Assembly: GCA_016206155.1 (NCBI GenBank)
Contig: JACQSC010000002.1
Span: forward strand, 79,473-143,472
Source of the DNA: Candidatus Uhrbacteria bacterium
Lineage (GTDB): Bacteria; Patescibacteriota; Patescibacteriia; JACQRZ01
Direction: 5' to 3'
DNA length: 64,000 nt
Shown here: in pieces, positions 3,856-51,333 of the stretch
Position numbering within the stretch: position 1 is the first letter of the stretch
How the letters are laid out: every line of letters begins with the position of its first letter
The notes under the pieces: generated by a model
The model's database searches: none
What the model was told of the DNA's origin: nothing
The model's input: the letters and a program-made list of their open reading frames with translations, nothing else
Program-made: the position numbers and the translations under genes

Positions 3856-4449
3856 ATGAGCGAGAAAGAACGCGTAGCGGTTTTCATTGATGGGAGCAAT
3901 CTCTATTATAGGATGAAAGAACTTGGAATACTCAGTATATCAAAGTTCGATTATAGGGCGTTGGCTGAATTTCTCGCATTGGATCGAGACTTGGTATATG
4001 CTGGCTATTATGTCGGCGTCGTGAAAGCGAAACCAGACAATACAAAGGGTCAGGAATTGCGAACAAAACAGCAGAAGCTATTTTCCCATTTAACGTCTCC
4101 TCAACAGAATTTTGACATCAATCGAGGCGTGCTCATCAGAAGTGATAGTAAGTACCACGAAAAGGGCGTTGATGTGCGAATCGCGGTTGATCTTCTCGTA
4201 GGCGCTTTTGACAATATGTACGATACGGCAATTCTCCTTTCATCAGATTCTGACCTCGTTCCAGCCGTACAGAAGGTTACCCAGTTCAAGAAAAAGATTG
4301 AGTATGTCGGATTCTCTCATCGACCGACATATGCGCTCCAAAAAGTTGCAACACGTTCAAAATTGCTTCTCAGGGAAGAGCTCATTGCGTTTCAAGTCAA
4401 GTTACAGAACGATGAGCTAGAAAAACAAAATTTTGAGATCTATCTATGA
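3856..4449 (+). CDS. NYN-domain (LabA/PIN-like) protein, predicted RNase
   Basis: The N-terminus VAVFIDGSNLYY and the later acidic cluster AILLSSDSDLV match the NYN/LabA-like fold. ATG at 3856; a TTG at 3847 is also possible. The stop overlaps the next start (ATGA). Confidence 0.7.
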   Translation: MSEKERVAVFIDGSNLYYRMKELGILSISKFDYRALAEFLALDRDLVYAGYYVGVVKAKPDNTKGQELRTKQQKLFSHLTSPQQNFDINRGVLIRSDSKYHEKGVDVRIAVDLLVGAFDNMYDTAILLSSDSDLVPAVQKVTQFKKKIEYVGFSHRPTYALQKVATRSKLLLREELIAFQVKLQNDELEKQNFEIYL

Positions 4450-4781
4450 TAACTGCCCTCTCATTTTTTCTTGGTCTTATCATTGGCGCGCTTGTTGGCT
4501 ATTTCATTACGCGTAAAACCCGTACAAATAGTGGAATTGCTGCAATTGTAGAACACCGTAGTATCAAAAAGCAAAAACGAAAAGAGCAGATCATAGCTCT
4601 CGTACAACAAAAAGGAACGATAGCAAACAACGACGTTGAGAAGTTCCTCAACGTATCCGACGCCACGGCAACAAATTATATTCAAGAACTTGAAGAGGAA
4701 GGAAAGATCAAACAAATCGGCGAGCGAGGGCGGTTTGTAACCTACCGACTGGCGACCGCGCCATCGGCCAAGTCGACTTAG
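4446..4781 (+). CDS. small membrane-anchored winged-helix DNA-binding protein
   Basis: N-terminal TM (ALSFFLGLIIGALVGYFI). The C-terminal segment IIALVQQKGTIANNDVEKFLNVSDATATNYIQELEEEGKI is a typical wHTH. Translationally coupled to the NYN gene. Confidence 0.55.
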   Translation: MITALSFFLGLIIGALVGYFITRKTRTNSGIAAIVEHRSIKKQKRKEQIIALVQQKGTIANNDVEKFLNVSDATATNYIQELEEEGKIKQIGERGRFVTYRLATAPSAKST

Positions 4782-5039: not shown

Positions 5040-5068
5040 TTGACAAAGGTTTTTTATTTTTTTATACT
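5040..5068 (+). promoter_or_regulatory. sigma70-type promoter of the hrcA operon (TTGACA, 17-bp spacer, TATACT)
   Basis: TTGACA at 5040-5045 and TATACT at 5063-5068 with a 17-nt spacer. The CIRCE operator follows immediately. Confidence 0.7.
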
Positions 5069-5095
5069 TTAGCAATCTCAGATATTGAGTGCTAA
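5069..5095 (+). promoter_or_regulatory. CIRCE operator (HrcA binding site)
   Basis: TTAGCAATC-N9-GAGTGCTAA, one mismatch from the consensus TTAGCACTC-N9-GAGTGCTAA. It lies between the -10 box and the hrcA start. Confidence 0.85.
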
Positions 5096-5099
5096 ATGA

Positions 5100-5774
5100 A
5101 TGGATGAACGAAAATTGCTTCTTGTCACGCACGTTGTTGACGCATATATTTCCACCGCGCATCCGGTTGGCTCGCAGGTTCTTGCTTCGCGCTATCGCTT
5201 GTCATGGAGTTCGGCGACAATTCGCAACGTACTCTCTCATCTTGAAGAAGAGGGGTATATGTTCCAACCCTATACCTCTGCGGGGCGCGTTCCGACGCAT
5301 TTGGGCTATCGTCTTTATCTCGAACACGTGCATGTAGCGCGCCTCAATCCTGCCCTGGAGCGATCACTGTCAAGCATGGCAGAACAGATGGCTTCCTTTG
5401 ATGAGCTCCGCGAGCTCTGTCGTATCCTCTCGCGCCTGACACAAGAGGTCGTCTTTACGGTCACACGTCTTGGATCGTTTACAACCGGGACACGATTCAT
5501 CACCCGGAAGCCCGAAGCGGAAGATCCGGCATTTATGCGAGATATTACCAATGCCATCGATGCGCTTGAGGATATATGCGCCGCGCTCGAGACGGAAATA
5601 GGCAGCATTACTCAATGTATCGGAGATGGGCAGACGTTTGGAGGTGCGTGCAGTGTTCTGCTCGTGCGCGTTCCATTTCAGCGCTCTACGGTTATGATTG
5701 GCATCCTTGGTCCGCTGCGCATGAATTATCATAAAAATATTGCCCTTCTTCAATCCCTCATCCCTAAACCCTAA
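5100..5774 (+). CDS. hrcA: heat-inducible transcription repressor HrcA (short form, 224 aa)
   Basis: N-terminal wHTH (LLLVTHVVDAYISTAHPVGSQVLASRY…LEEEGYMFQPYTSAGRVPT) is typical of HrcA. It is first gene of the hrcA-grpE-dnaK-dnaJ arrangement. It is shorter than the usual ~340 aa. Confidence 0.8.
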   Translation: MDERKLLLVTHVVDAYISTAHPVGSQVLASRYRLSWSSATIRNVLSHLEEEGYMFQPYTSAGRVPTHLGYRLYLEHVHVARLNPALERSLSSMAEQMASFDELRELCRILSRLTQEVVFTVTRLGSFTTGTRFITRKPEAEDPAFMRDITNAIDALEDICAALETEIGSITQCIGDGQTFGGACSVLLVRVPFQRSTVMIGILGPLRMNYHKNIALLQSLIPKP

Positions 5775-5796
5775 ACCCTAAACCCTAAACCCTAAA
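5762..5796. repeat. (CCCTAAA)x5 heptamer tandem repeat spanning the hrcA stop codon
   Basis: ccctaaa repeated five times. The hrcA TAA stop at 5772-5774 lies inside the tract. Confidence 0.9.
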
Positions 5797-5812
5797 CCCC
5801 AATCCCTCCTCT

Positions 5813-6379
5813 ATGAGCGACGAACAGACACAATCCACAGACGATAACGAAACACTGAAGCATGAGCTTGAAACATGCAAGAAGCAGTGTGAGGAATATC
5901 TCAACGGTTGGAAACGTGCAAAGGCCGACTACATTAACTATAAAAATGAAACTGAGAAGCGACGCGATGAGCTTGCGGGCATGGCTCTTATGACCTCAGC
6001 CGCGCAGTTTATCCCACCGCTCGATAATTTAAAAATAGCATTTATCCAGCTGCCGGATGAACTGAAGGAATCTGATTGGGTGAGGGGCATAGAGCAGATT
6101 CGCAAGCAGCTTGTTGAAATCATGAAAGGTTTGGGGGTTGAGGAGTTTGCAGAACCGGTTGTCGGCGCCGCATTTGATCCGGCAAAATTTTACGCCGTTG
6201 GCGAAGAGCGCCGCGATGATTTTGAGGACGGTGTGATTACACAGGAAGTAAGCCCGGGGTACACATTTCGTGGAAGCCTCATGGTTCCAGCGAAGGTTAT
6301 CGTTAATAAGAATCAAGAATCTAGAATTAAGAATCAAGAATCAGAGGGTGACACAGAGAAGAATGACCTTAATTCTTAA
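5813..6379 (+). CDS. grpE: nucleotide exchange factor GrpE
   Basis: Coiled-coil N-terminus followed by a GrpE C-terminal beta domain (…GYTFRGSLMVPAKVIV). Position between hrcA and dnaK. The C-terminal tail NKNQESRIKNQESEG is encoded by AATCAAG-like heptamers. Confidence 0.9.
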   Translation: MSDEQTQSTDDNETLKHELETCKKQCEEYLNGWKRAKADYINYKNETEKRRDELAGMALMTSAAQFIPPLDNLKIAFIQLPDELKESDWVRGIEQIRKQLVEIMKGLGVEEFAEPVVGAAFDPAKFYAVGEERRDDFEDGVITQEVSPGYTFRGSLMVPAKVIVNKNQESRIKNQESEGDTEKNDLNS

Positions 6380-6437
6380 TTCATTATTCATAATTCTTTA
6401 AATTTAAGAAGCGCTAACATATTAATCAAAATATACT

Positions 6438-13047: not shown

Positions 13048-13050
13048 CGA

Positions 13051-13099
13051 GGGGTCTGGCTCAGTTTTTGCACCGGCAAAATCTGTGCCTGACCCCATT
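13051..13099. repeat. palindromic element copy, intergenic (family with termini GGGGTC(A/T)GG)
   Basis: ggggtctggctcagtttttgc…gcaaaatctgtgcctgacccc forms an imperfect hairpin. Its reverse complement is near-identical to the element inside thrC at 24291..24355. Confidence 0.8.
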
Positions 13100-15916: not shown

Positions 15917-15963
15917 ATAATGGGGTCAGGAGCCATTAAATTAATGGCTCCTGACCCCATTAT
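15917..15963. repeat. perfect palindrome AATGGGGTCAGGAGCCATTAA-a-TTAATGGCTCCTGACCCCATT, followed by (CATTATTTC)x3
   Basis: The arms were verified by reverse complement. It shares the AATGGGGTCAGG terminus with the copies at 13051, 24291 and 56081. It sits at the truncated 5' end of the recombinase remnant. Confidence 0.85.
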
Positions 15964-20326: not shown

Positions 20327-21381
20327 ATGTTTTTCTTGTTGGAACCGGACTCATCGGATCTACACTTCTCACACAGATTCGTGAGAATCAATCACGGTTG
20401 AAGGCGGAGGGAGTCGAGTTAAGCGTGTGCGGGATTGCAAACGCAGAGCGCATGCTTCTTGACGCAAACGGCATTGCGCTCGATCGGTGGCAGGAGCGTC
20501 TTGCGCAGGACGGCATCTCGCTTGATCTCGCCGCATATATCTCAGCAAGCGGATCGTGGAGGATGCCACGCAGTGTTTTTGTTGATTGCACCGCCAGTCA
20601 GGATGTTGCCGATGCATATTGCAGTATTGCGCGTACCGGAGCGGCGATTGTTGCGGCAAACAAAAAGGCGCAGTCCGGTTCGCTCGATGCGTACGAAACA
20701 TTATGGAAGACGCTTCATGAGACAAGAACATCATTTTTGTACGAGACCAATGTGGGCGCGGCGCTGCCGGTGATCAGCGCCCTCAAAGATCTGCTTGTGA
20801 CAGGTGATCGTGTTGAAAAAATTGAGGCGATTCTTTCGGGTACCTTGAGCTATATCTTCAACACATATTCGGATTCTCGCAGTCCATTTTCTGATATCGT
20901 CCGTGAGGCAAAAGAAAAAGGCTACACAGAGCCCGATCCGCGTGACGACCTTTCAGGATTGGATGTTGCACGAAAAGCCGTGATTCTGGCACGAGAGATT
21001 GGGCAGAAGATTTCAGTAGAGGACATCGCACGCGCTCCGCTCCTTTCCGACACGTGCATGAGCGCCGGATCGGTTGATGATTTTTTTTCAGCACTGGAAT
21101 CAATGAACGCGGAATGGGAAGAAAAGAAGCAATCGGCAAAAAGTCGCGGAAGCGTGTTGCGCTACATTGCAACAATTGATCAAAGCGGAGCGCGTATTTC
21201 ACTCGAGGAAGTAAATCAAACACACGCCTTTTATTCTCTGTCGGGAAGTGATAATATCGTTGCATTCACAACAGCTCGTTACTGTGATACTCCGCTTGTG
21301 ATTAAAGGTCCAGGCGCCGGCGCACAGGTGACTGCCGGGGGCGTTTTTGCGGATATTCTTAAAACAGGGTATAGGGTTTAG
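20323..21381 (+). CDS. hom: homoserine dehydrogenase
   Basis: NAD-binding N-terminus (VFLVGTGLIGS) and the HSDH catalytic signature (…EAKEKGYTEPDPRDDLSGLDVARKAVILAREIG). Overlaps the lysC stop. Confidence 0.88.
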   Translation: MNVFLVGTGLIGSTLLTQIRENQSRLKAEGVELSVCGIANAERMLLDANGIALDRWQERLAQDGISLDLAAYISASGSWRMPRSVFVDCTASQDVADAYCSIARTGAAIVAANKKAQSGSLDAYETLWKTLHETRTSFLYETNVGAALPVISALKDLLVTGDRVEKIEAILSGTLSYIFNTYSDSRSPFSDIVREAKEKGYTEPDPRDDLSGLDVARKAVILAREIGQKISVEDIARAPLLSDTCMSAGSVDDFFSALESMNAEWEEKKQSAKSRGSVLRYIATIDQSGARISLEEVNQTHAFYSLSGSDNIVAFTTARYCDTPLVIKGPGAGAQVTAGGVFADILKTGYRV

Positions 21382-21388
21382 GGTTTAG
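21367..21388. repeat. (TTTAGGG)~3 heptamer tract, reverse orientation of the CCCTAAA tracts, spanning the hom stop codon
   Basis: gggtatagggtttagggtttag. The hom TAG stop at 21379-21381 lies inside the tract. Confidence 0.85.
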
Positions 21389-22540: not shown

Positions 22541-22622
22541 GAAGAATTACGAATTACGAATTAAGCATAAAAAGCAACAGATTTAAGCTCCTTAATTCTT
22601 AATTCTTGATTCGTAATTCTTC
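22541..22622. repeat. imperfect inverted repeat built from GAATTAC/GAATTAA heptamers (hairpin between asd and thrB)
   Basis: gaagaattacgaattacgaattaag …35 nt… cttaattcttaattcttgattcgtaattcttc. The arms are reverse-complementary apart from one heptamer variant. Confidence 0.75.
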
Positions 22623-23582: not shown

Positions 23583-24928
23583 ACTATTACAGCACAAACA
23601 AAAAAGCGCCGAGCGTGTCATTGCGCGAGGCGGTATTGAACGGTCTTGCGCAGGACGGGGGATTGTATATGCCTGAGCGGATTTCACAGATGCCGTCAGA
23701 TTTTTTTGTTCGTCTTCCCTCGCTATCATTTCAAGAAATTGCATACGAGGTTGGCCGTGTGCTTTTTGCCGGAGATCTTCCCGACAGTACTCTGGATGAG
23801 ATATGCAGAGAAAGTTTTGATTTTCCTGTTCCGTTAAAGCGTGTCGATGCATCGACACACGCTCTTGAGCTATTCCATGGGCCGACACTGGCATTCAAGG
23901 ATTTTGCCGCACGATTTATGGCTCGGCTCATGGGCTATTACGTGCGTCATGATGATCGGGAGCTGACTATCCTTGTCGCAACATCCGGAGATACGGGAAG
24001 CGCGGCTGCGCACGGTTTTCTTAATGTTCCTGGCATTCGCGTCTTTATTCTCTATCCATCCGGCCGGGTCAGCGATCTTCAGGAGAAGCAGCTGACGACA
24101 ATGGGCGGGAACATCACCGCGCTTGAAGTTCAGGGGAGTTTTGATGATTGTCAGGCGCTGGCAAAGCAGGCATTTGTTGATCCGGATTTAAAAAAGAAAA
24201 TGCGCATGGGATCGGCAAATTCAATTAACATCGCGCGGCTTTTTCCGCAGACGTTTTATTACTGGTGGGCAGTTGAACAAATGGGGAAACGGGGTCAGGC
24301 ACAGATTTTGCATTCGCAAAAACTGAGCCAGACCCCAACTGAGCCAGACCCCATTATCGTCTCTGTCCCGAGTGGCAACGTTGGCAATCTCACGGCCGGG
24401 CTTATTGCAAAACAAATGGGTCTGCCAATTGGCCGCTTTATTGCCGCATGCAATGAAAATAACGTTATTCCGGAGTACCTTAAAACAGGGATCTTCACGC
24501 CGAAGCCTTCTCGTGCTACGATATCCAATGCCATGGATGTAGGCAATCCAAGCAATTTTGTGCGGATGCAGGAGCTCTATGGTCACTCTGCAGATGCGAT
24601 GAGGCATGATCTCTCGGCCCATTCCTTCACCGACGATCAGACACGAGCGGCGATGCGGGATGTGTATAACGATACGGGATATATTCTTGACCCTCATGGC
24701 GCCGTTGGATATTGCGCGCTCAAGGAATATCAGAAACAATATCCGGAAACGTATGGCATTATTCTTGAGACCGCTCATCCGGCAAAATTCAAAGACGTTG
24801 TAGAGGACACTATCGGCTCGCCGGTTGACATACCAAAGCGTCTGGCAGAATATATGATGCGAGAGAAGCAAGCAGTTTTACTACCCGCGCGATTTGGGGC
24901 ATTAAAAGAATTTTTGATTAGCTCATGA
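23579..24928 (+). CDS. thrC: threonine synthase (carries an in-frame palindromic-element insertion)
   Basis: PLP-binding FHGPTLAFKD lysine motif and SGNVGNLTAG. Overlaps the thrB stop. Positions 24291-24355 encode an extra peptide (…GQAQILHSQKLSQTPTEPDP…) from a repeat element. Confidence 0.92.
   Translation: MNYYSTNKKAPSVSLREAVLNGLAQDGGLYMPERISQMPSDFFVRLPSLSFQEIAYEVGRVLFAGDLPDSTLDEICRESFDFPVPLKRVDASTHALELFHGPTLAFKDFAARFMARLMGYYVRHDDRELTILVATSGDTGSAAAHGFLNVPGIRVFILYPSGRVSDLQEKQLTTMGGNITALEVQGSFDDCQALAKQAFVDPDLKKKMRMGSANSINIARLFPQTFYYWWAVEQMGKRGQAQILHSQKLSQTPTEPDPIIVSVPSGNVGNLTAGLIAKQMGLPIGRFIAACNENNVIPEYLKTGIFTPKPSRATISNAMDVGNPSNFVRMQELYGHSADAMRHDLSAHSFTDDQTRAAMRDVYNDTGYILDPHGAVGYCALKEYQKQYPETYGIILETAHPAKFKDVVEDTIGSPVDIPKRLAEYMMREKQAVLLPARFGALKEFLISS
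24291..24355. repeat. palindromic element copy inserted in-frame inside thrC
   Basis: ggggtcaggcacagattttgc-attc-gcaaaaactgagccagacccc forms a 21-bp stem with three A-A mismatches. The right arm is partially duplicated (aactgagccagacccc x2). Near-identical to the reverse complement of 13051..13099. Confidence 0.85.
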
Positions 24929-30932: not shown

Positions 30933-31005
30933 CAAACGGCTTCTGGCGTATTATTGTAGGTATGGTATGCTATCAATGTATAAACCGGTTTATACATTGA
31001 CGAAA

Positions 31006-31030
31006 CCCTAAACCCTAAACCCTAAACCCT
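31006..31030. repeat. (CCCTAAA)x3+CCCT tract abutting the start codon of the YtxH-like gene
   Basis: ccctaaaccctaaaccctaaaccct immediately followed by ATG at 31031. Confidence 0.9.
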
Positions 31031-31381
31031 ATGAAAGGAACACTTAAAGGAGCGGCGCTTGGCGCGCTCGTAGCATCCGCCGCAGCGCTTCTCCTCGCTC
31101 CAAAGTCAGGAAGAAAAACACGCGCTGACTTAAAAAAATTGCTTGATACCGCATCGACAGATTTGCAAAAAAAAGCAAAAAAAATACAGAATCTCTCACA
31201 AGCGCAATATGAAGAGCTCTTTCTTCATTCACTTGCCCAAGCCGCGCGAAAAAAAGAAGAAATCGTTGATGTGCTTGGCGATGTTGCCGCAGTGCTGAAG
31301 AAGGGATGGAGCGATGTGCGCCAGGAGCTAAAAACCTCAAAGCCGGCAAAGACTACGGGAGGTGCAAAAAAGAAAAAGTAG
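31031..31381 (+). CDS. YtxH-like (DUF948) stress protein
   Basis: GAALGALVASAAALLLAPKSGRKTRADLKK matches the YtxH N-terminal motif. Lys-rich helical remainder. Confidence 0.7.
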   Translation: MKGTLKGAALGALVASAAALLLAPKSGRKTRADLKKLLDTASTDLQKKAKKIQNLSQAQYEELFLHSLAQAARKKEEIVDVLGDVAAVLKKGWSDVRQELKTSKPAKTTGGAKKKK

Positions 31382-34034: not shown

Positions 34035-35132
34035 ATGCCAAAGCTGGTTGTCAGTCTTGTTACGTATAACAGTAAAAACACCCTTGCGCGCTGTTTGGAG
34101 AGCGTTGCCAATCAGACATTTCGCGATTTCGAACTCATATGTCGCGACAATCATTCATCTGACGGCAGTGCTGATGGTGTGCGGCGTGCGTACCCTTCCG
34201 CACACTGTATCCAATCGCCGACAAACGAAGGATTTTCTCGAGCGCACAATGCAACGATTCGCGATACGACGTCTCCGTATCTGTGTATTCTCAACGCGGA
34301 TCTTATTCTTGATCCGTCCTATTTTGAGGAATGTGTTTCTTTTCTTGATGCGCATCATGGGGCGGCAGCAGTTTCCGGGCTTCTGGTGAAAGTACATTCA
34401 TTGACCGAGCCGGTTCATTCTGATACCATAGATTCCTCGGGGATCGTTCTTTTTCGCACGGGCCGCGCCGCTAATGCAGACGCAGGTAAATCCATTGAGG
34501 CGTTTAAGAAAATAACACAACGCATCGGTGTTCCCGCAACTGCGGCCGTCTATCGTCGCGCAGCGCTTGAGGATATTTCGTTGAAGATTTGTACATGTCA
34601 GCGGATGAGGCACTCGCAGTCGGATGGAGTGCAAGGCGGCAGCGATGAGCGGAGTAAGGCGTATATGGAAATACGTCGTCGAGCACCGGAGCTGGCAACG
34701 CAGCAATCCGCCGACTGCGAGTGCCGTATCGAATACTTTGACGAGGATTTTTTCATGTACAAGGAAGATGTCGATGTGGCTTTGCGCTTGACCCTTCGCG
34801 GATGGCGCTCCTATGCAATTCCCACATCACGCGCGTACCATATGCGCAGCACCGATGAAAACATTTTAAAAAGACCCTCGCCATTTATTAATCGTCTGTC
34901 ATATCGAAACCACTGGTTTGTTTTATTAAAAGATCTCCCTCGTTCCTTCTGGCTCCGTAATGGATTCCGGATTCTCTTTTTTGAAAGCGCAAAGCTTTTG
35001 TATCTCCTCATGCGCGAACCGAGCACGCTTGCAGCGCTTTTCGATGTCCTGAAGCTACGAGAAAAGATGCTTCAAAAAAGAGCCTTCATAATGGAAAGGG
35101 CAAAAGTTAAAAGCATAAAGTTAAAAGCATAA
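34035..35132 (+). CDS. glycosyltransferase family 2
   Basis: VVSLVTYNSKNTLARCLESVANQTFRDFELICRDNHSSDGS is a classic GT2 N-terminal motif. The last codons are encoded by a 14-mer tandem repeat. Confidence 0.8.
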   Translation: MPKLVVSLVTYNSKNTLARCLESVANQTFRDFELICRDNHSSDGSADGVRRAYPSAHCIQSPTNEGFSRAHNATIRDTTSPYLCILNADLILDPSYFEECVSFLDAHHGAAAVSGLLVKVHSLTEPVHSDTIDSSGIVLFRTGRAANADAGKSIEAFKKITQRIGVPATAAVYRRAALEDISLKICTCQRMRHSQSDGVQGGSDERSKAYMEIRRRAPELATQQSADCECRIEYFDEDFFMYKEDVDVALRLTLRGWRSYAIPTSRAYHMRSTDENILKRPSPFINRLSYRNHWFVLLKDLPRSFWLRNGFRILFFESAKLLYLLMREPSTLAALFDVLKLREKMLQKRAFIMERAKVKSIKLKA

Positions 35133-35140
35133 AGTTAAAA
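35099..35140. repeat. 14-mer tandem repeat (AAAGTTAAAAGCAT x~3) spanning the GT2 stop codon
   Basis: aaagttaaaagcat aaagttaaaagcat aaagttaaaag. It encodes …KVKSIKLKA*. Confidence 0.85.
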
Positions 35141-35145
35141 GTTCA

Positions 35146-45627: not shown

Positions 45628-46173
45628 ATGGCACGATCAAAACAAAGCAAACAGGATATACTTGAGAAGCTAGCGGATGCTCTAGGAAGGAGCGTTTCCG
45701 TAGTATTCGCAAGCGTAAAGGGCCTCAAGGTGTATGAGTTGGAGGAGCTTCGAAAAACGCTTCGAACCGAGGGTAACGAGTGTTTTGTCGCAAAAAAAAC
45801 ACTTCTCTCCCGCGCATTTTCCACCATGGAAACTAAGTTTGACTTCAGAGGTATGGATGGAGAGGTTGCAGCGGTTTTCGGATATACTGATCAAGTTGCG
45901 CCAGCGCGTGTACTGAGTGCGTTTGGCAAGACCCACGAGAAACTGACTATTCTTGCCGGTTTCATCAAGGATGAGGCAAGTGGCGTACAGTCATTGACAT
46001 CATCAGCCATTGCAGCGCTTGCGCTTTTGCCCTCCCGTGATGAACTGCGCGCCCGGGTTGTTGGATCACTGGCGGCACCGTTGCGTAATTGTGTTGGTGT
46101 TCTCCAGGGACCGCTTCGCGCATTCGCTCAAGTACTTAATGCATACGCACAAACCCTAAACCCTAAACCCTAA
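45628..46173 (+). CDS. rplJ: 50S ribosomal protein L10
   Basis: [39 protein letters not shown]… matches the L10 pattern and is followed by rplL. The ~320-bp upstream spacer likely contains the L10 leader. Confidence 0.9.
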
Positions 46174-46178
46174 ACCCT
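46154..46178. repeat. (CCCTAAA)x3+CCCT tract spanning the rplJ stop in the rplJ-rplL spacer
   Basis: ccctaaaccctaaaccctaaaccct. The rplJ TAA at 46171-73 lies inside the tract, and rplL starts 7 nt after it. Confidence 0.9.
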
Positions 46179-46184
46179 ATTTGT

Positions 46185-46589
46185 ATGTCAGATGAAAAAA
46201 ATGAAGTGGCCGTTCCAGAAAAGTTTAAGGACCTTGTCTCAAAAATCGAAAATCTGAGCGCTCTCGACCTCGCTGAGCTTGTAAAAGTTCTTGAGGAAAA
46301 GTTCGGCGTATCCGCCTCTGCGCCAGTCATGGCAGTGGCAGCAGCCGCACCGGGCGCTGGAGCTCCCGTTGAGGAAAAGTCATCGTTCGATGTTGAGATT
46401 ACAGAAGCTGGCGGCAACAAGATTGCCGTTATTAAGGTAGTCCGCGAGATCACTCAGCTTGGATTGAAGGAAGCAAAGGATCTAGTTGATGCCGCACCAA
46501 AGGTTGTGAAGGAAGGCGCAGGCAAGAATGATGCGGAGACAATGAAGAAGAAACTTGAAGAGGCCGGCGCAAAGGTCACATTGAAGTAA
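46185..46589 (+). CDS. rplL: 50S ribosomal protein L7/L12
   Basis: N-terminal dimerisation helix, an Ala/Pro hinge ([10 protein letters not shown]), and the C-terminal domain …[20 protein letters not shown]…. Confidence 0.93.
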
Positions 46590-51249: not shown

Positions 51250-51333
51250 CCAATCTGTCCACAAGTGTACTGTTTTTTTTTAATTATGCAAGATTGTTAT
51301 CACCCTAACCCCTATACCATAACCCATTCTTAA

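Follow-up and report, generated by a model that had tools for sequence, protein, structure and literature searches.

Oriented CCCTAAA heptamer repeats at gene junctions of a Candidatus Uhrbacteria genome

The DNA analysed here, a stretch of 64,000 nucleotides (the window) from contig JACQSC010000002.1 of a Candidatus Uhrbacteria bacterium, carries tandem tracts of the heptamer CCCTAAA at five gene junctions. The tracts are members of a class of intergenic heptamer repeats already known from bacteria, to which they add a new unit and a new host lineage. The account that we favour, with about even confidence, is that they are slippage-born heptamer microsatellites confined to spacers and gene tails, and that a filter on orientation, acting at the RNA level, favours the G-free strand ahead of start codons that operate independently of a Shine-Dalgarno sequence. 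This account is grounded in the repeat nature of the tracts, their placement and polarity, the absence of Shine-Dalgarno sequences, the predicted accessibility of the start codons and the state of the array in relatives.

Three of the five tracts are perfect, one is imperfect and inverted, and one, newly found here, is degenerate. A first-pass annotation of the window had described four perfect tracts; all four loci are real, but the one at 21366–21388 is the imperfect, inverted member. Tract 1, on the forward strand between hrcA and grpE, has a perfect core of 5.4 units at 5762–5799, with CCCTAAA repeated exactly five times at 5762–5796; Tandem Repeats Finder (TRF) reports a 6.6-unit array at 5762–5807, and with a degenerate unit that begins at 5755 the whole array occupies 5755–5807. 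Tract 2, between hom and asd, lies on the reverse strand (21366–21388; about 3.3 imperfect units, 93% identity) and presents TTTAGGG on the sense strand. Tracts 3 (31003–31031, upstream of ytxH) and 4 (46151–46179, between rplJ and rplL) are both on the forward strand and are the same perfect 29-mer of 4.1 units, AAA(CCCTAAA)3CCCTA, with four C-runs. Tract 5 (51303–51333, forward strand, upstream of pyrG) consists of degenerate heptads in the C-strand sense: CCCTAAC CCCTATA CCATAAC CCATTCT TAA.

That the tracts exceed chance, as the annotation held, is borne out by the two-unit 14-mer, which has 8 matches in the window against 0.00 in 100 dinucleotide shuffles; a 17-mer allowed up to 3 mismatches has 15 matches against 0.05. 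Exact tandem runs of at least 2.5 units number four at period 7 and none at periods 5, 6 and 8–12, and the two runs of period 4 fall under their own shuffle mean; 7 is the sole enriched tandem period. Rows with a period of 7, 14 or 21 make up half of all TRF rows, with AAGAATC, CTTAATT, GAATTAC and AAAAGTT as further units. No two-unit CCCTAAA arrays were found in the window. Head-to-tail copies numbering 3.3–5.4, or up to 6.6 by TRF, and found 0 times in 100 shuffles, mark the tracts as heptanucleotide simple-sequence repeats, and “slippage-prone tract”, one of the categories proposed at first pass, is the right one.

Every tract also sits on a gene boundary, as originally proposed: stop codons lie inside tracts 1, 2 and 4, and tract 3 runs into the ytxH ATG. 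With flanking genes named by Pfam, hrcA (5100–5774, forward strand, Pfam HrcA, 224 aa) ends at the TAA of 5772–5774, confirmed to lie in unit 2 of tract 1, and grpE (5813–6379, forward strand) has its ATG 13 nt past the perfect run and 5 nt past the degenerate array. Nearly the entire hrcA/grpE spacer is thus tract 1, which also supplies the last hrcA codons and the stop. Tract 2 holds the last codons of hom (homoserine dehydrogenase) and its TAG stop at 21379–21381, and the asd ATG (21418) follows 29 nt on. The final base of tract 3 (31031) is the A of the ytxH ATG, and a thioredoxin-reductase-like gene lies 70 nt upstream of the tract. Tract 4 holds the last six codons and the stop (46171–46173) of rplJ, encoding L10, and the ATG of rplL, encoding L7/L12, follows 5 nt later at 46185. 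Tract 5 ends right at the ATG of the CTP synthase gene pyrG (51334). Spacers at the tract junctions measure 11–98 nt, and at four loci the array lies 0–13 nt from the ATG (0, 5 and 13 nt for the perfect tracts). All five loci fall within spacers or the last 2–6 codons of a gene, an exclusion from coding sequence. Contact with a boundary is partly trivial, because about 90% of the window is taken up by open reading frames (ORFs) of at least 100 aa and co-directional genes are separated by a median of 14 nt, so that a non-coding array of 29–53 nt must touch a start or a stop.

The tracts are real sequence, and their junctions are neither chimeric nor assembly artefacts, an objection that the annotation had raised as a possible refutation. 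Seven SRA runs supply eleven independently assembled Logan contigs that match the window at 99.9–100% identity and join a tract directly to grpE, ytxH or rplL. All eleven begin inside a tract, and exact-protein look-ups with GrpE, L7/L12 and YtxH gave only such contigs. They break there because a 30-mer is common to the loci and tract 1 is longer than k = 31, and they therefore give no cross-check of copy number. A metagenome scan with the hrcA end plus the first unit had no match and found no other strain.

The arithmetic of a seven-nucleotide unit bears on what such a tract does to the gene upstream. As 7 is coprime to 3, (CCCTAAA)3 contains TAA and (TTTAGGG)3 contains TAG in every frame, and any ORF entering an array therefore ends within three units. 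Gain or loss of units in a perfect array leaves the 5′ entry unchanged, and HrcA (ending in SLIPKP) and L10 (ending in QTLNPKP, with its stop in the third unit of the perfect run of tract 4) are therefore invariant while two or three units remain. The first-pass suggestion that changes in repeat number would alter the C-terminus of HrcA does not survive this argument, as its stop is in unit 2 and the protein stays constant while at least two units remain. HrcA and L10 did change when the array itself was born or homogenised: HrcA of the closest relative has the same length and ends in QSLTISH in place of QSLIPKP. In a reduced genome, such arrays have visibly rewritten the final codons of HrcA, L10, Hom and GrpE, all of them essential.

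The tract is not confined to this organism. Scanning one genome per bacterial and archaeal species for (CCCTAAA)3 gave at least 120 loci in at least 109 other bacterial genomes, which speaks against the first-pass idea of a genome-specific motif; all counts that follow in this and the next paragraph are among the matches listed. The genomes comprise 59 Bacteroidota (Rhodothermales included), 5 of the Candidate Phyla Radiation (CPR) and 37 from other phyla. Arrays near locus ends and arrays longer than 150 nt (possible contamination or long-read oddities) were left out of the placement analysis. Among 99 tracts with two flanking ORFs, none lay inside an ORF, and an ORF was within 25 nt on the 3′ side of the C strand for 48 tracts, as against 11 on the 5′ side (binomial p = 1e-6). 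The polarity appears in both gene orientations (C-sense pairs 22 versus 5, G-sense pairs 14 versus 2) and in Bacteroidota (26 versus 4) as well as other phyla (13 versus 3). Bias in ORF calling does not explain it, because in G-sense pairs the near boundary is a stop and the far one is the start, which is the end that can be over-extended.

In 31 of 139 tracts an ORF of 100 aa or more begins no further than 25 nt downstream of the C strand, compared with 5 for the G strand; a separate count, leaving out only arrays near locus ends, found 32 of 148 internal tracts with such an ORF starting within 25 nt 3′ of the C strand. Pfam placed 19 of 20 ORFs that start just after a tract in a family (TIM, SecY, L16, CutC, SerRS, YchF, DnaE, YebC, GSIII and others), and in about a dozen of the 20 the match begins at residue 1–7, which indicates that the start codons are genuine and the genes ordinary housekeeping genes. 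The tracts often stand 0–20 nt ahead of such starts. In other CPR genomes the tract stands directly upstream of secY, rplP and serS. The spacer on the far side of the array is long in other genomes, with a median of about 95–107 nt. Some long-read assemblies, from Alphaproteobacteria, Acidobacteriaceae, Hyphomicrobiales and Minwuia (loci L014, L103, L105, L030 and L042), carry 40–90 or more units, internally or at contig ends; these may be eukaryotic contamination, chimeras or genuine giant arrays, and were kept out of the statistics.

Closer to the window, the orthologous hrcA/grpE junction could be compared at eight loci representing seven distinct relatives. In the closest relative (L127), in which the 24 nt before dnaK are identical to the window, the spacer is a degenerate period-7 array (CCCCTAG ATCCTAA TCCCTAT ACCCTAA), and another (L125/126) has a different one (AACCCCT AGACCCT AACCCCT ATAACCT); both are C-strand sense and nearly free of G. 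The remaining five relatives have spacers of 9–27 nt and no array. Between species the hrcA/grpE array is thus perfect, degenerate or absent. At rplJ/rplL, 0 of 26 relatives identified through L7/L12 carried a CCCTAAA array, so conservation at that junction is not supported; some carried other period-7 arrays (one, L162, has an AAAAGTT/C array before rplL), and the spacers of all 26 are A/T-rich and have no Shine-Dalgarno sequence. The closest relative has further heptamers, namely AGGTGTC seven times and CTGATCA ten times before hrcA and TCGTAAC five times at dnaK/dnaJ. The window has 6.25 perfect period-7 runs per 100 kb, and 387 kb of relatives have 1.29 per 100 kb (periods 8 and 9: 0.26). 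Heptamer arrays are therefore a property of this clade's spacers, and the window organism is unusually rich in them, with one dominant unit.

The host is a CPR bacterium with a GC content of 49%, whose GrpE is identical to an NCBI protein from a Candidatus Uhrbacteria genome. It appears not to use Shine-Dalgarno sequences: a Shine-Dalgarno-like 4-mer lies upstream of 8 of 57 starts, and this 14% is the background rate. Leaders are A-rich (36% A at −20 to −1) and somewhat G-poor. C-sense tracts have a predicted minimum free energy of about zero within the tract and a predicted unpaired probability of 0.80–0.83, compared with 0.38–0.46 for a 450-nt context. For the region −25 to +5, the four genes behind C-sense tracts rank 1–4 of 39 in predicted accessibility (0.69–0.80; median 0.42). 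This ranking is a result of the G-free composition, yet the physical outcome is what counts. A C-sense tract contains no AUG, GUG or UUG. The Bacteroidetes likewise have no Shine-Dalgarno sequences, and there mRNA structure tunes initiation and extra AUGs near starts are avoided (PMC6847099).

We infer from these observations that the tracts arose by slippage and are transcribed, and that they may affect translation. The most likely origin is replication slippage, in a very compact Uhrbacteria genome whose spacers are short and poor in G and which makes no use of Shine-Dalgarno sequences. A unit of seven nucleotides breaks the frame, and this one brings stops in every frame of either strand, so that spacers and the last few dispensable codons of the upstream gene are the only places where arrays can be kept; on this account that is the reason for their position at stops and starts. 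The RNA would then act as a filter on orientation. An array whose C-rich strand is the mRNA would give a G-free, unstructured spacer lacking AUG, GUG and UUG, leaving the next start codon maximally accessible for initiation or re-initiation independent of a Shine-Dalgarno sequence; an array transcribed as its G-rich strand would be held beside the upstream stop and away from the next start. A change in copy number would alter only the length of the spacer, and the upstream protein would stay the same. A bolder and rather doubtful version of the idea is that sense-strand (CCCTAAA)n is a convergently selected leader or intercistronic insulator that replaces the Shine-Dalgarno sequence across Bacteroidota and some CPR, with the G-strand array as a stop-proximal 3′ element; if this were true, a plant-telomere-type repeat would be a widespread bacterial cis-element.

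Several points weigh against the slippage-and-filter account. The effect on translation is drawn from predicted folding, and the high accessibility follows automatically from a composition free of G. Other leaders in the window are not C-rich (17% C at −20 to −1), and the favourable A at −3 is present in 0 of 4 tract genes. The RNA model needs two separate rules, one to place the C strand ahead of starts and one to place the G strand behind stops, and the polarity, being intrinsic to the repeat, could also come from a single DNA-level cause. Slippage alone does not explain how one unit comes to occupy five loci in 64 kb, twice as an identical 29-mer. Variation in copy number, the hallmark of slippage, is unobserved, as the Logan contigs break in every tract and an all-against-all BLAST of the at least 120 listed tract loci found no orthologous pairs; these loci may also not be a random sample.

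The simplest competitor, less probable than our favoured account and still a serious one, is that the tracts are neutral slippage debris of no function, their position reflecting exclusion from reading frames and their polarity a mutational bias or purifying selection against G-rich leaders. It accommodates the several unrelated units that form arrays at junctions, here and in relatives, as well as the invaded gene tails, HrcA, L10 and Hom ending within a tract and GrpE carrying an extension of about 20 aa from (AAGAATC)5. The array is dispensable, five of the seven distinct relatives having none at hrcA/grpE, and with a median spacer of 14 nt contact with a start or stop is unavoidable. Pure neutrality sits less well with the strength of the polarity, 48 versus 11 in both gene orientations and across phyla among the matches listed, or with arrays that in other genomes hug one ORF despite a long spacer on the far side (median about 95–107 nt among the matches listed). 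Nor would it predict the same unit at five loci of the window, where two-unit arrays are absent.

It is also conceivable, if unlikely, that the tracts are G-quadruplex (G4) or i-motif elements of the type of Rehm et al. (2015), the selected feature being four G3 runs on the antisense DNA (or on the RNA where the array is G-sense) that modulate transcription, replication or mRNA 3′ ends. The unit is GGG plus 4 nt, as in GGGAATC, and that GGGNATC class has the polarity seen here and, for its part, prefers four units (PMC4692102). Tracts 3 and 4 each contain four C3/G3 runs, no more and no fewer, the runs of tract 1 would suffice for two quadruplexes, and in the ViennaRNA G4 model the antisense strands of these three tracts form three-layer structures at −8.4 to −19.0 kcal/mol. 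Quadruplexes are formed in vitro by d(TTTAGGG)4, the telomeric DNA of the plant type. Four runs are the commonest class among the 148 tracts of the matches listed (52, with 21 having five), though the 21-nt search pattern under-samples three-run arrays and makes this no fair test. Tract 2, with three runs, and tract 5 are however unable to form a G4, and the clade's other junction heptamer arrays have no G-runs at all; G4 formation is therefore not the general driver here, and the authors of the GGGNATC class found no function for it (PMC4692102). It may still add to the success of the CCCTAAA unit in particular.

Contingency repeats that switch or tune the upstream C-terminus or downstream expression by copy number, as (ATCTTTC)n does at H. 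influenzae hmw, are in our judgement a very unlikely explanation. Heptamers in 5′ untranslated regions (5′ UTRs) do control expression in H. influenzae (PMC12721329), the spacing from a stop to the next start would shift by 7 nt per unit, and in a different array, the (AAGAATC)5 within grpE, a unit change would shift the frame. In the tracts themselves, however, the stop in unit 2 or 3 renders the upstream protein invariant to copy number, and the genes, here (grpE, rplL, asd, pyrG) and in 20 other genomes, are housekeeping rather than surface, virulence or restriction genes. An hmw-like pairing of the tract with a remote G-rich arm was considered and rejected: the tracts have no such partner, and their predicted unpaired fraction in a 450-nt context is about 80%. 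We give hardly any credence to a sequence-specific protein-binding or regulon motif, a recombination hotspot or a mobile element, although the same unit does recur at five loci and loci 3 and 4 are identical 29-mers. The downstream genes have no common function, no flanking sequence common to the loci and no terminal inverted repeats were seen, which sets the tracts apart from dispersed elements of the REP/MITE type, and Rfam found only four tRNAs in the window and no family at any tract. The presence of the tract in at least 109 unrelated genomes argues against a lineage-specific regulator. The hotspot proposed at first pass finds no echo in the synteny around the junction: the order hrcA-grpE-dnaK(-dnaJ) is constant in all relatives whose contigs reach that far, with the array or without it. 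Telomeric origin or eukaryotic contamination was rejected as well, because the arrays are internal and independent assemblies tie them to bacterial genes.

Further features concern the surroundings of the loci, among which the operon-internal position of tracts 1 and 4 counts in favour of the preferred account. A sigma-70-like promoter on the forward strand (TTGACA-17-TATACT, 5040–5068) precedes hrcA and is followed directly, on the same strand, by a perfect CIRCE operator, TTAGCAATC-N9-GAGTGCTAA, at 5069–5095; hrcA, grpE, dnaK and dnaJ therefore form one operon to which tract 1 is internal. HrcA is short here, its 224 aa corresponding to the C-terminal PF01628 part only, as in seven relative loci with a complete hrcA (219–228 aa), and the CIRCE is canonical nonetheless. 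A separate 111-aa winged-helix ORF at 4446–4781, upstream of hrcA, might supply the DNA-binding domain that the short HrcA is missing. The leader of grpE, CCCCAATCCCTCCTCT, has no Shine-Dalgarno sequence, and CCTCCT, which matches the anti-Shine-Dalgarno sequence, precedes the gene. Tract 4 is internal to rplJ-rplL; the only promoter-like match ahead of rplJ is a weak one, and downstream of rplL a stem with a T-run behind it is visible. At tract 3 a promoter was considered and rejected: TTGACG lies just 5′ of the tract, yet no acceptable −10 hexamer follows 16–18 nt on within it. Immediately 5′ of this tract is a perfect 28-bp palindrome (30973–31000; TCAATGTATAAACC/GGTTTATACATTGA, no loop), which has no second copy in the window and may act as an operator or form a hairpin.

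Other repeats of the window are also built of heptamers. In the region 6308–6398, (AAGAATC)5 lies within the 3′ end of grpE and is translated to give a protein ending in VIVNKNQESRIKNQESEGDTEKNDLNS; GrpE of relatives ends in VIVNKK(x), and the array has therefore added a C-terminal extension of about 20 aa. Unlike the CCCTAAA tracts, a change of one unit in this array would shift the frame. It can pair with (CTTAATT)4 across the grpE stop, a weak fold (−17 kcal/mol, z −1.05). After asd, at 22541–22622, inverted (GAATTAC)3 and (CTTAATT)4-like arrays form a long predicted hairpin (−30.2 kcal/mol, z −9.96) with no U-tail, which could be an RNA-processing, stabilising or terminator element made of heptamers. 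A repeat of (AAAGTTAAAAGCAT)2.8 at 35103–35141, with an underlying period of 7, spans the stop of a GT2 glycosyltransferase gene and ends 4 nt before the next GT2 start; it is one more junction array with a unit of its own, and the AAAAGTT/C array of L162 resembles it. Of a different kind is a REP-like palindrome, GGGGTCTGGCTCAGTTTTTGC-N4-GCAAAATCTGTGCCTGACCCC, found once and as an inverse copy with a duplicated half (13050–13097 and 24291–24352); the copy at 24.3 kb lies inside a predicted 449-aa ORF, and a related hairpin with a 20-bp stem (GGGGTCAGGAGCC...) is listed with 15917–15963.

In itself the finding is modest, as reports of heptamer microsatellites in the spacers of bacteria go back to 1990 and 2007, and that of their polarity to 2015. 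What is new is the extension of the phenomenon to the CPR, the repeat unit CCCTAAA, coincidentally that of plant telomeres, and the reproduction of the 2015 polarity rule for this unit across at least 109 genomes, most of them in a phylum that makes no use of Shine-Dalgarno signals. The hypothesis is thereby sharpened into a testable form, that the C-rich strand serves as an open leader free of start codons, and cultured, genetically tractable carriers of the tract exist in Pedobacter and Chryseobacterium. There are practical consequences too. Such repeats systematically fragment short-k assemblies at every locus, which matters for the completeness of metagenome-assembled genomes, and arrays at contig ends could pass for telomeric sequence, which is relevant to screening out “telomere” contamination.

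Among known systems, the Arabidopsis-type telomere (TTTAGGG)n has an identical unit, and the first-pass annotation had drawn that connection. Telomeric arrays are long and stand at the ends of linear replicons; those described here are 23–53 bp rather than kilobases, lie in operons inside a 245-kb contig with unique bacterial genes on both sides, and are oriented by genes and not by ends. The resemblance is coincidental. A literature search for CCCTAAA or TTTAGGG tracts in bacteria turned up no bacterial report, its matches being to plants, oomycetes and primers, and the unit is not mentioned in PMC4692102 or PMC4679880. In the 5′ UTR of H. influenzae hmw, the (ATCTTTC)n repeats number at least 11 units, pair with a G-rich arm into a long hairpin that RNase III cuts, and control a surface adhesin (PMC12721329), whereas the CCCTAAA tracts are predicted to be unpaired, have 3–6 units and stand before housekeeping genes.

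Closer in kind are the heptamers surveyed by Mrazek et al. (2007). By the summaries in PMC4679880 and PMC4692102, no other long repeat unit is as over-represented as the heptamer in many genomes of bacteria; heptamers have their concentration in non-coding DNA, and polymerase slippage is proposed as their origin. The STRR heptamers of cyanobacteria (Calothrix PCC 7601) are grouped with these 7-nt repeats as the same kind, and the surveys predate CPR genomes. MacGregor (2015) described TAACTGA repeats in marine Beggiatoaceae, some cyanobacteria and Bacteroidetes, 2–6 copies a few nt upstream of starts (PMC4679880). The genes downstream mostly lack a Shine-Dalgarno sequence, the repeats also occur inside ribosomal-protein operons, they contain stops in all frames and there are 169 sets per genome; a translational role through binding of S1, Csp or CsrA was proposed and not tested there (PMC4679880). 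The present tracts differ in their unit, TAACTGA having no G3 or C3 runs and many more sets per genome. They are alike in standing close to starts that have no Shine-Dalgarno sequence, at 0–13 nt for four loci, including a place inside a ribosomal-protein operon; examples are rplJ/rplL here and sites directly upstream of rplP and secY in other CPR genomes.

The nearest relatives of the CCCTAAA tracts are the GGGAATC and GGGGA(C/T)T (GGGNATC) heptamers of Xanthomonas and Nostoc reported by Rehm et al. (2015), which are intergenic and mostly between co-directional ORFs (PMC4692102). Their G strand is antisense within 50 bp upstream of an ORF, or sense at or just after a stop, some overlapping the stop itself; about four units are common, the neighbours are ordinary metabolic genes and the function is not known (PMC4692102). 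The units are not the same, the CCCTAAA tracts reading GGGTTTA on the other strand, and the host here is a CPR bacterium of 49% GC with junction spacers of 11–98 nt. By the ViennaRNA G4 model, three of the five window loci have the capacity for a quadruplex of four G-runs and two do not. The two classes share a tandem architecture of G3 plus N4, placement at junctions beside ordinary genes, and the same polar arrangement, which is followed by all five loci of the window and by 48 tracts as against 11 among the matches listed elsewhere.

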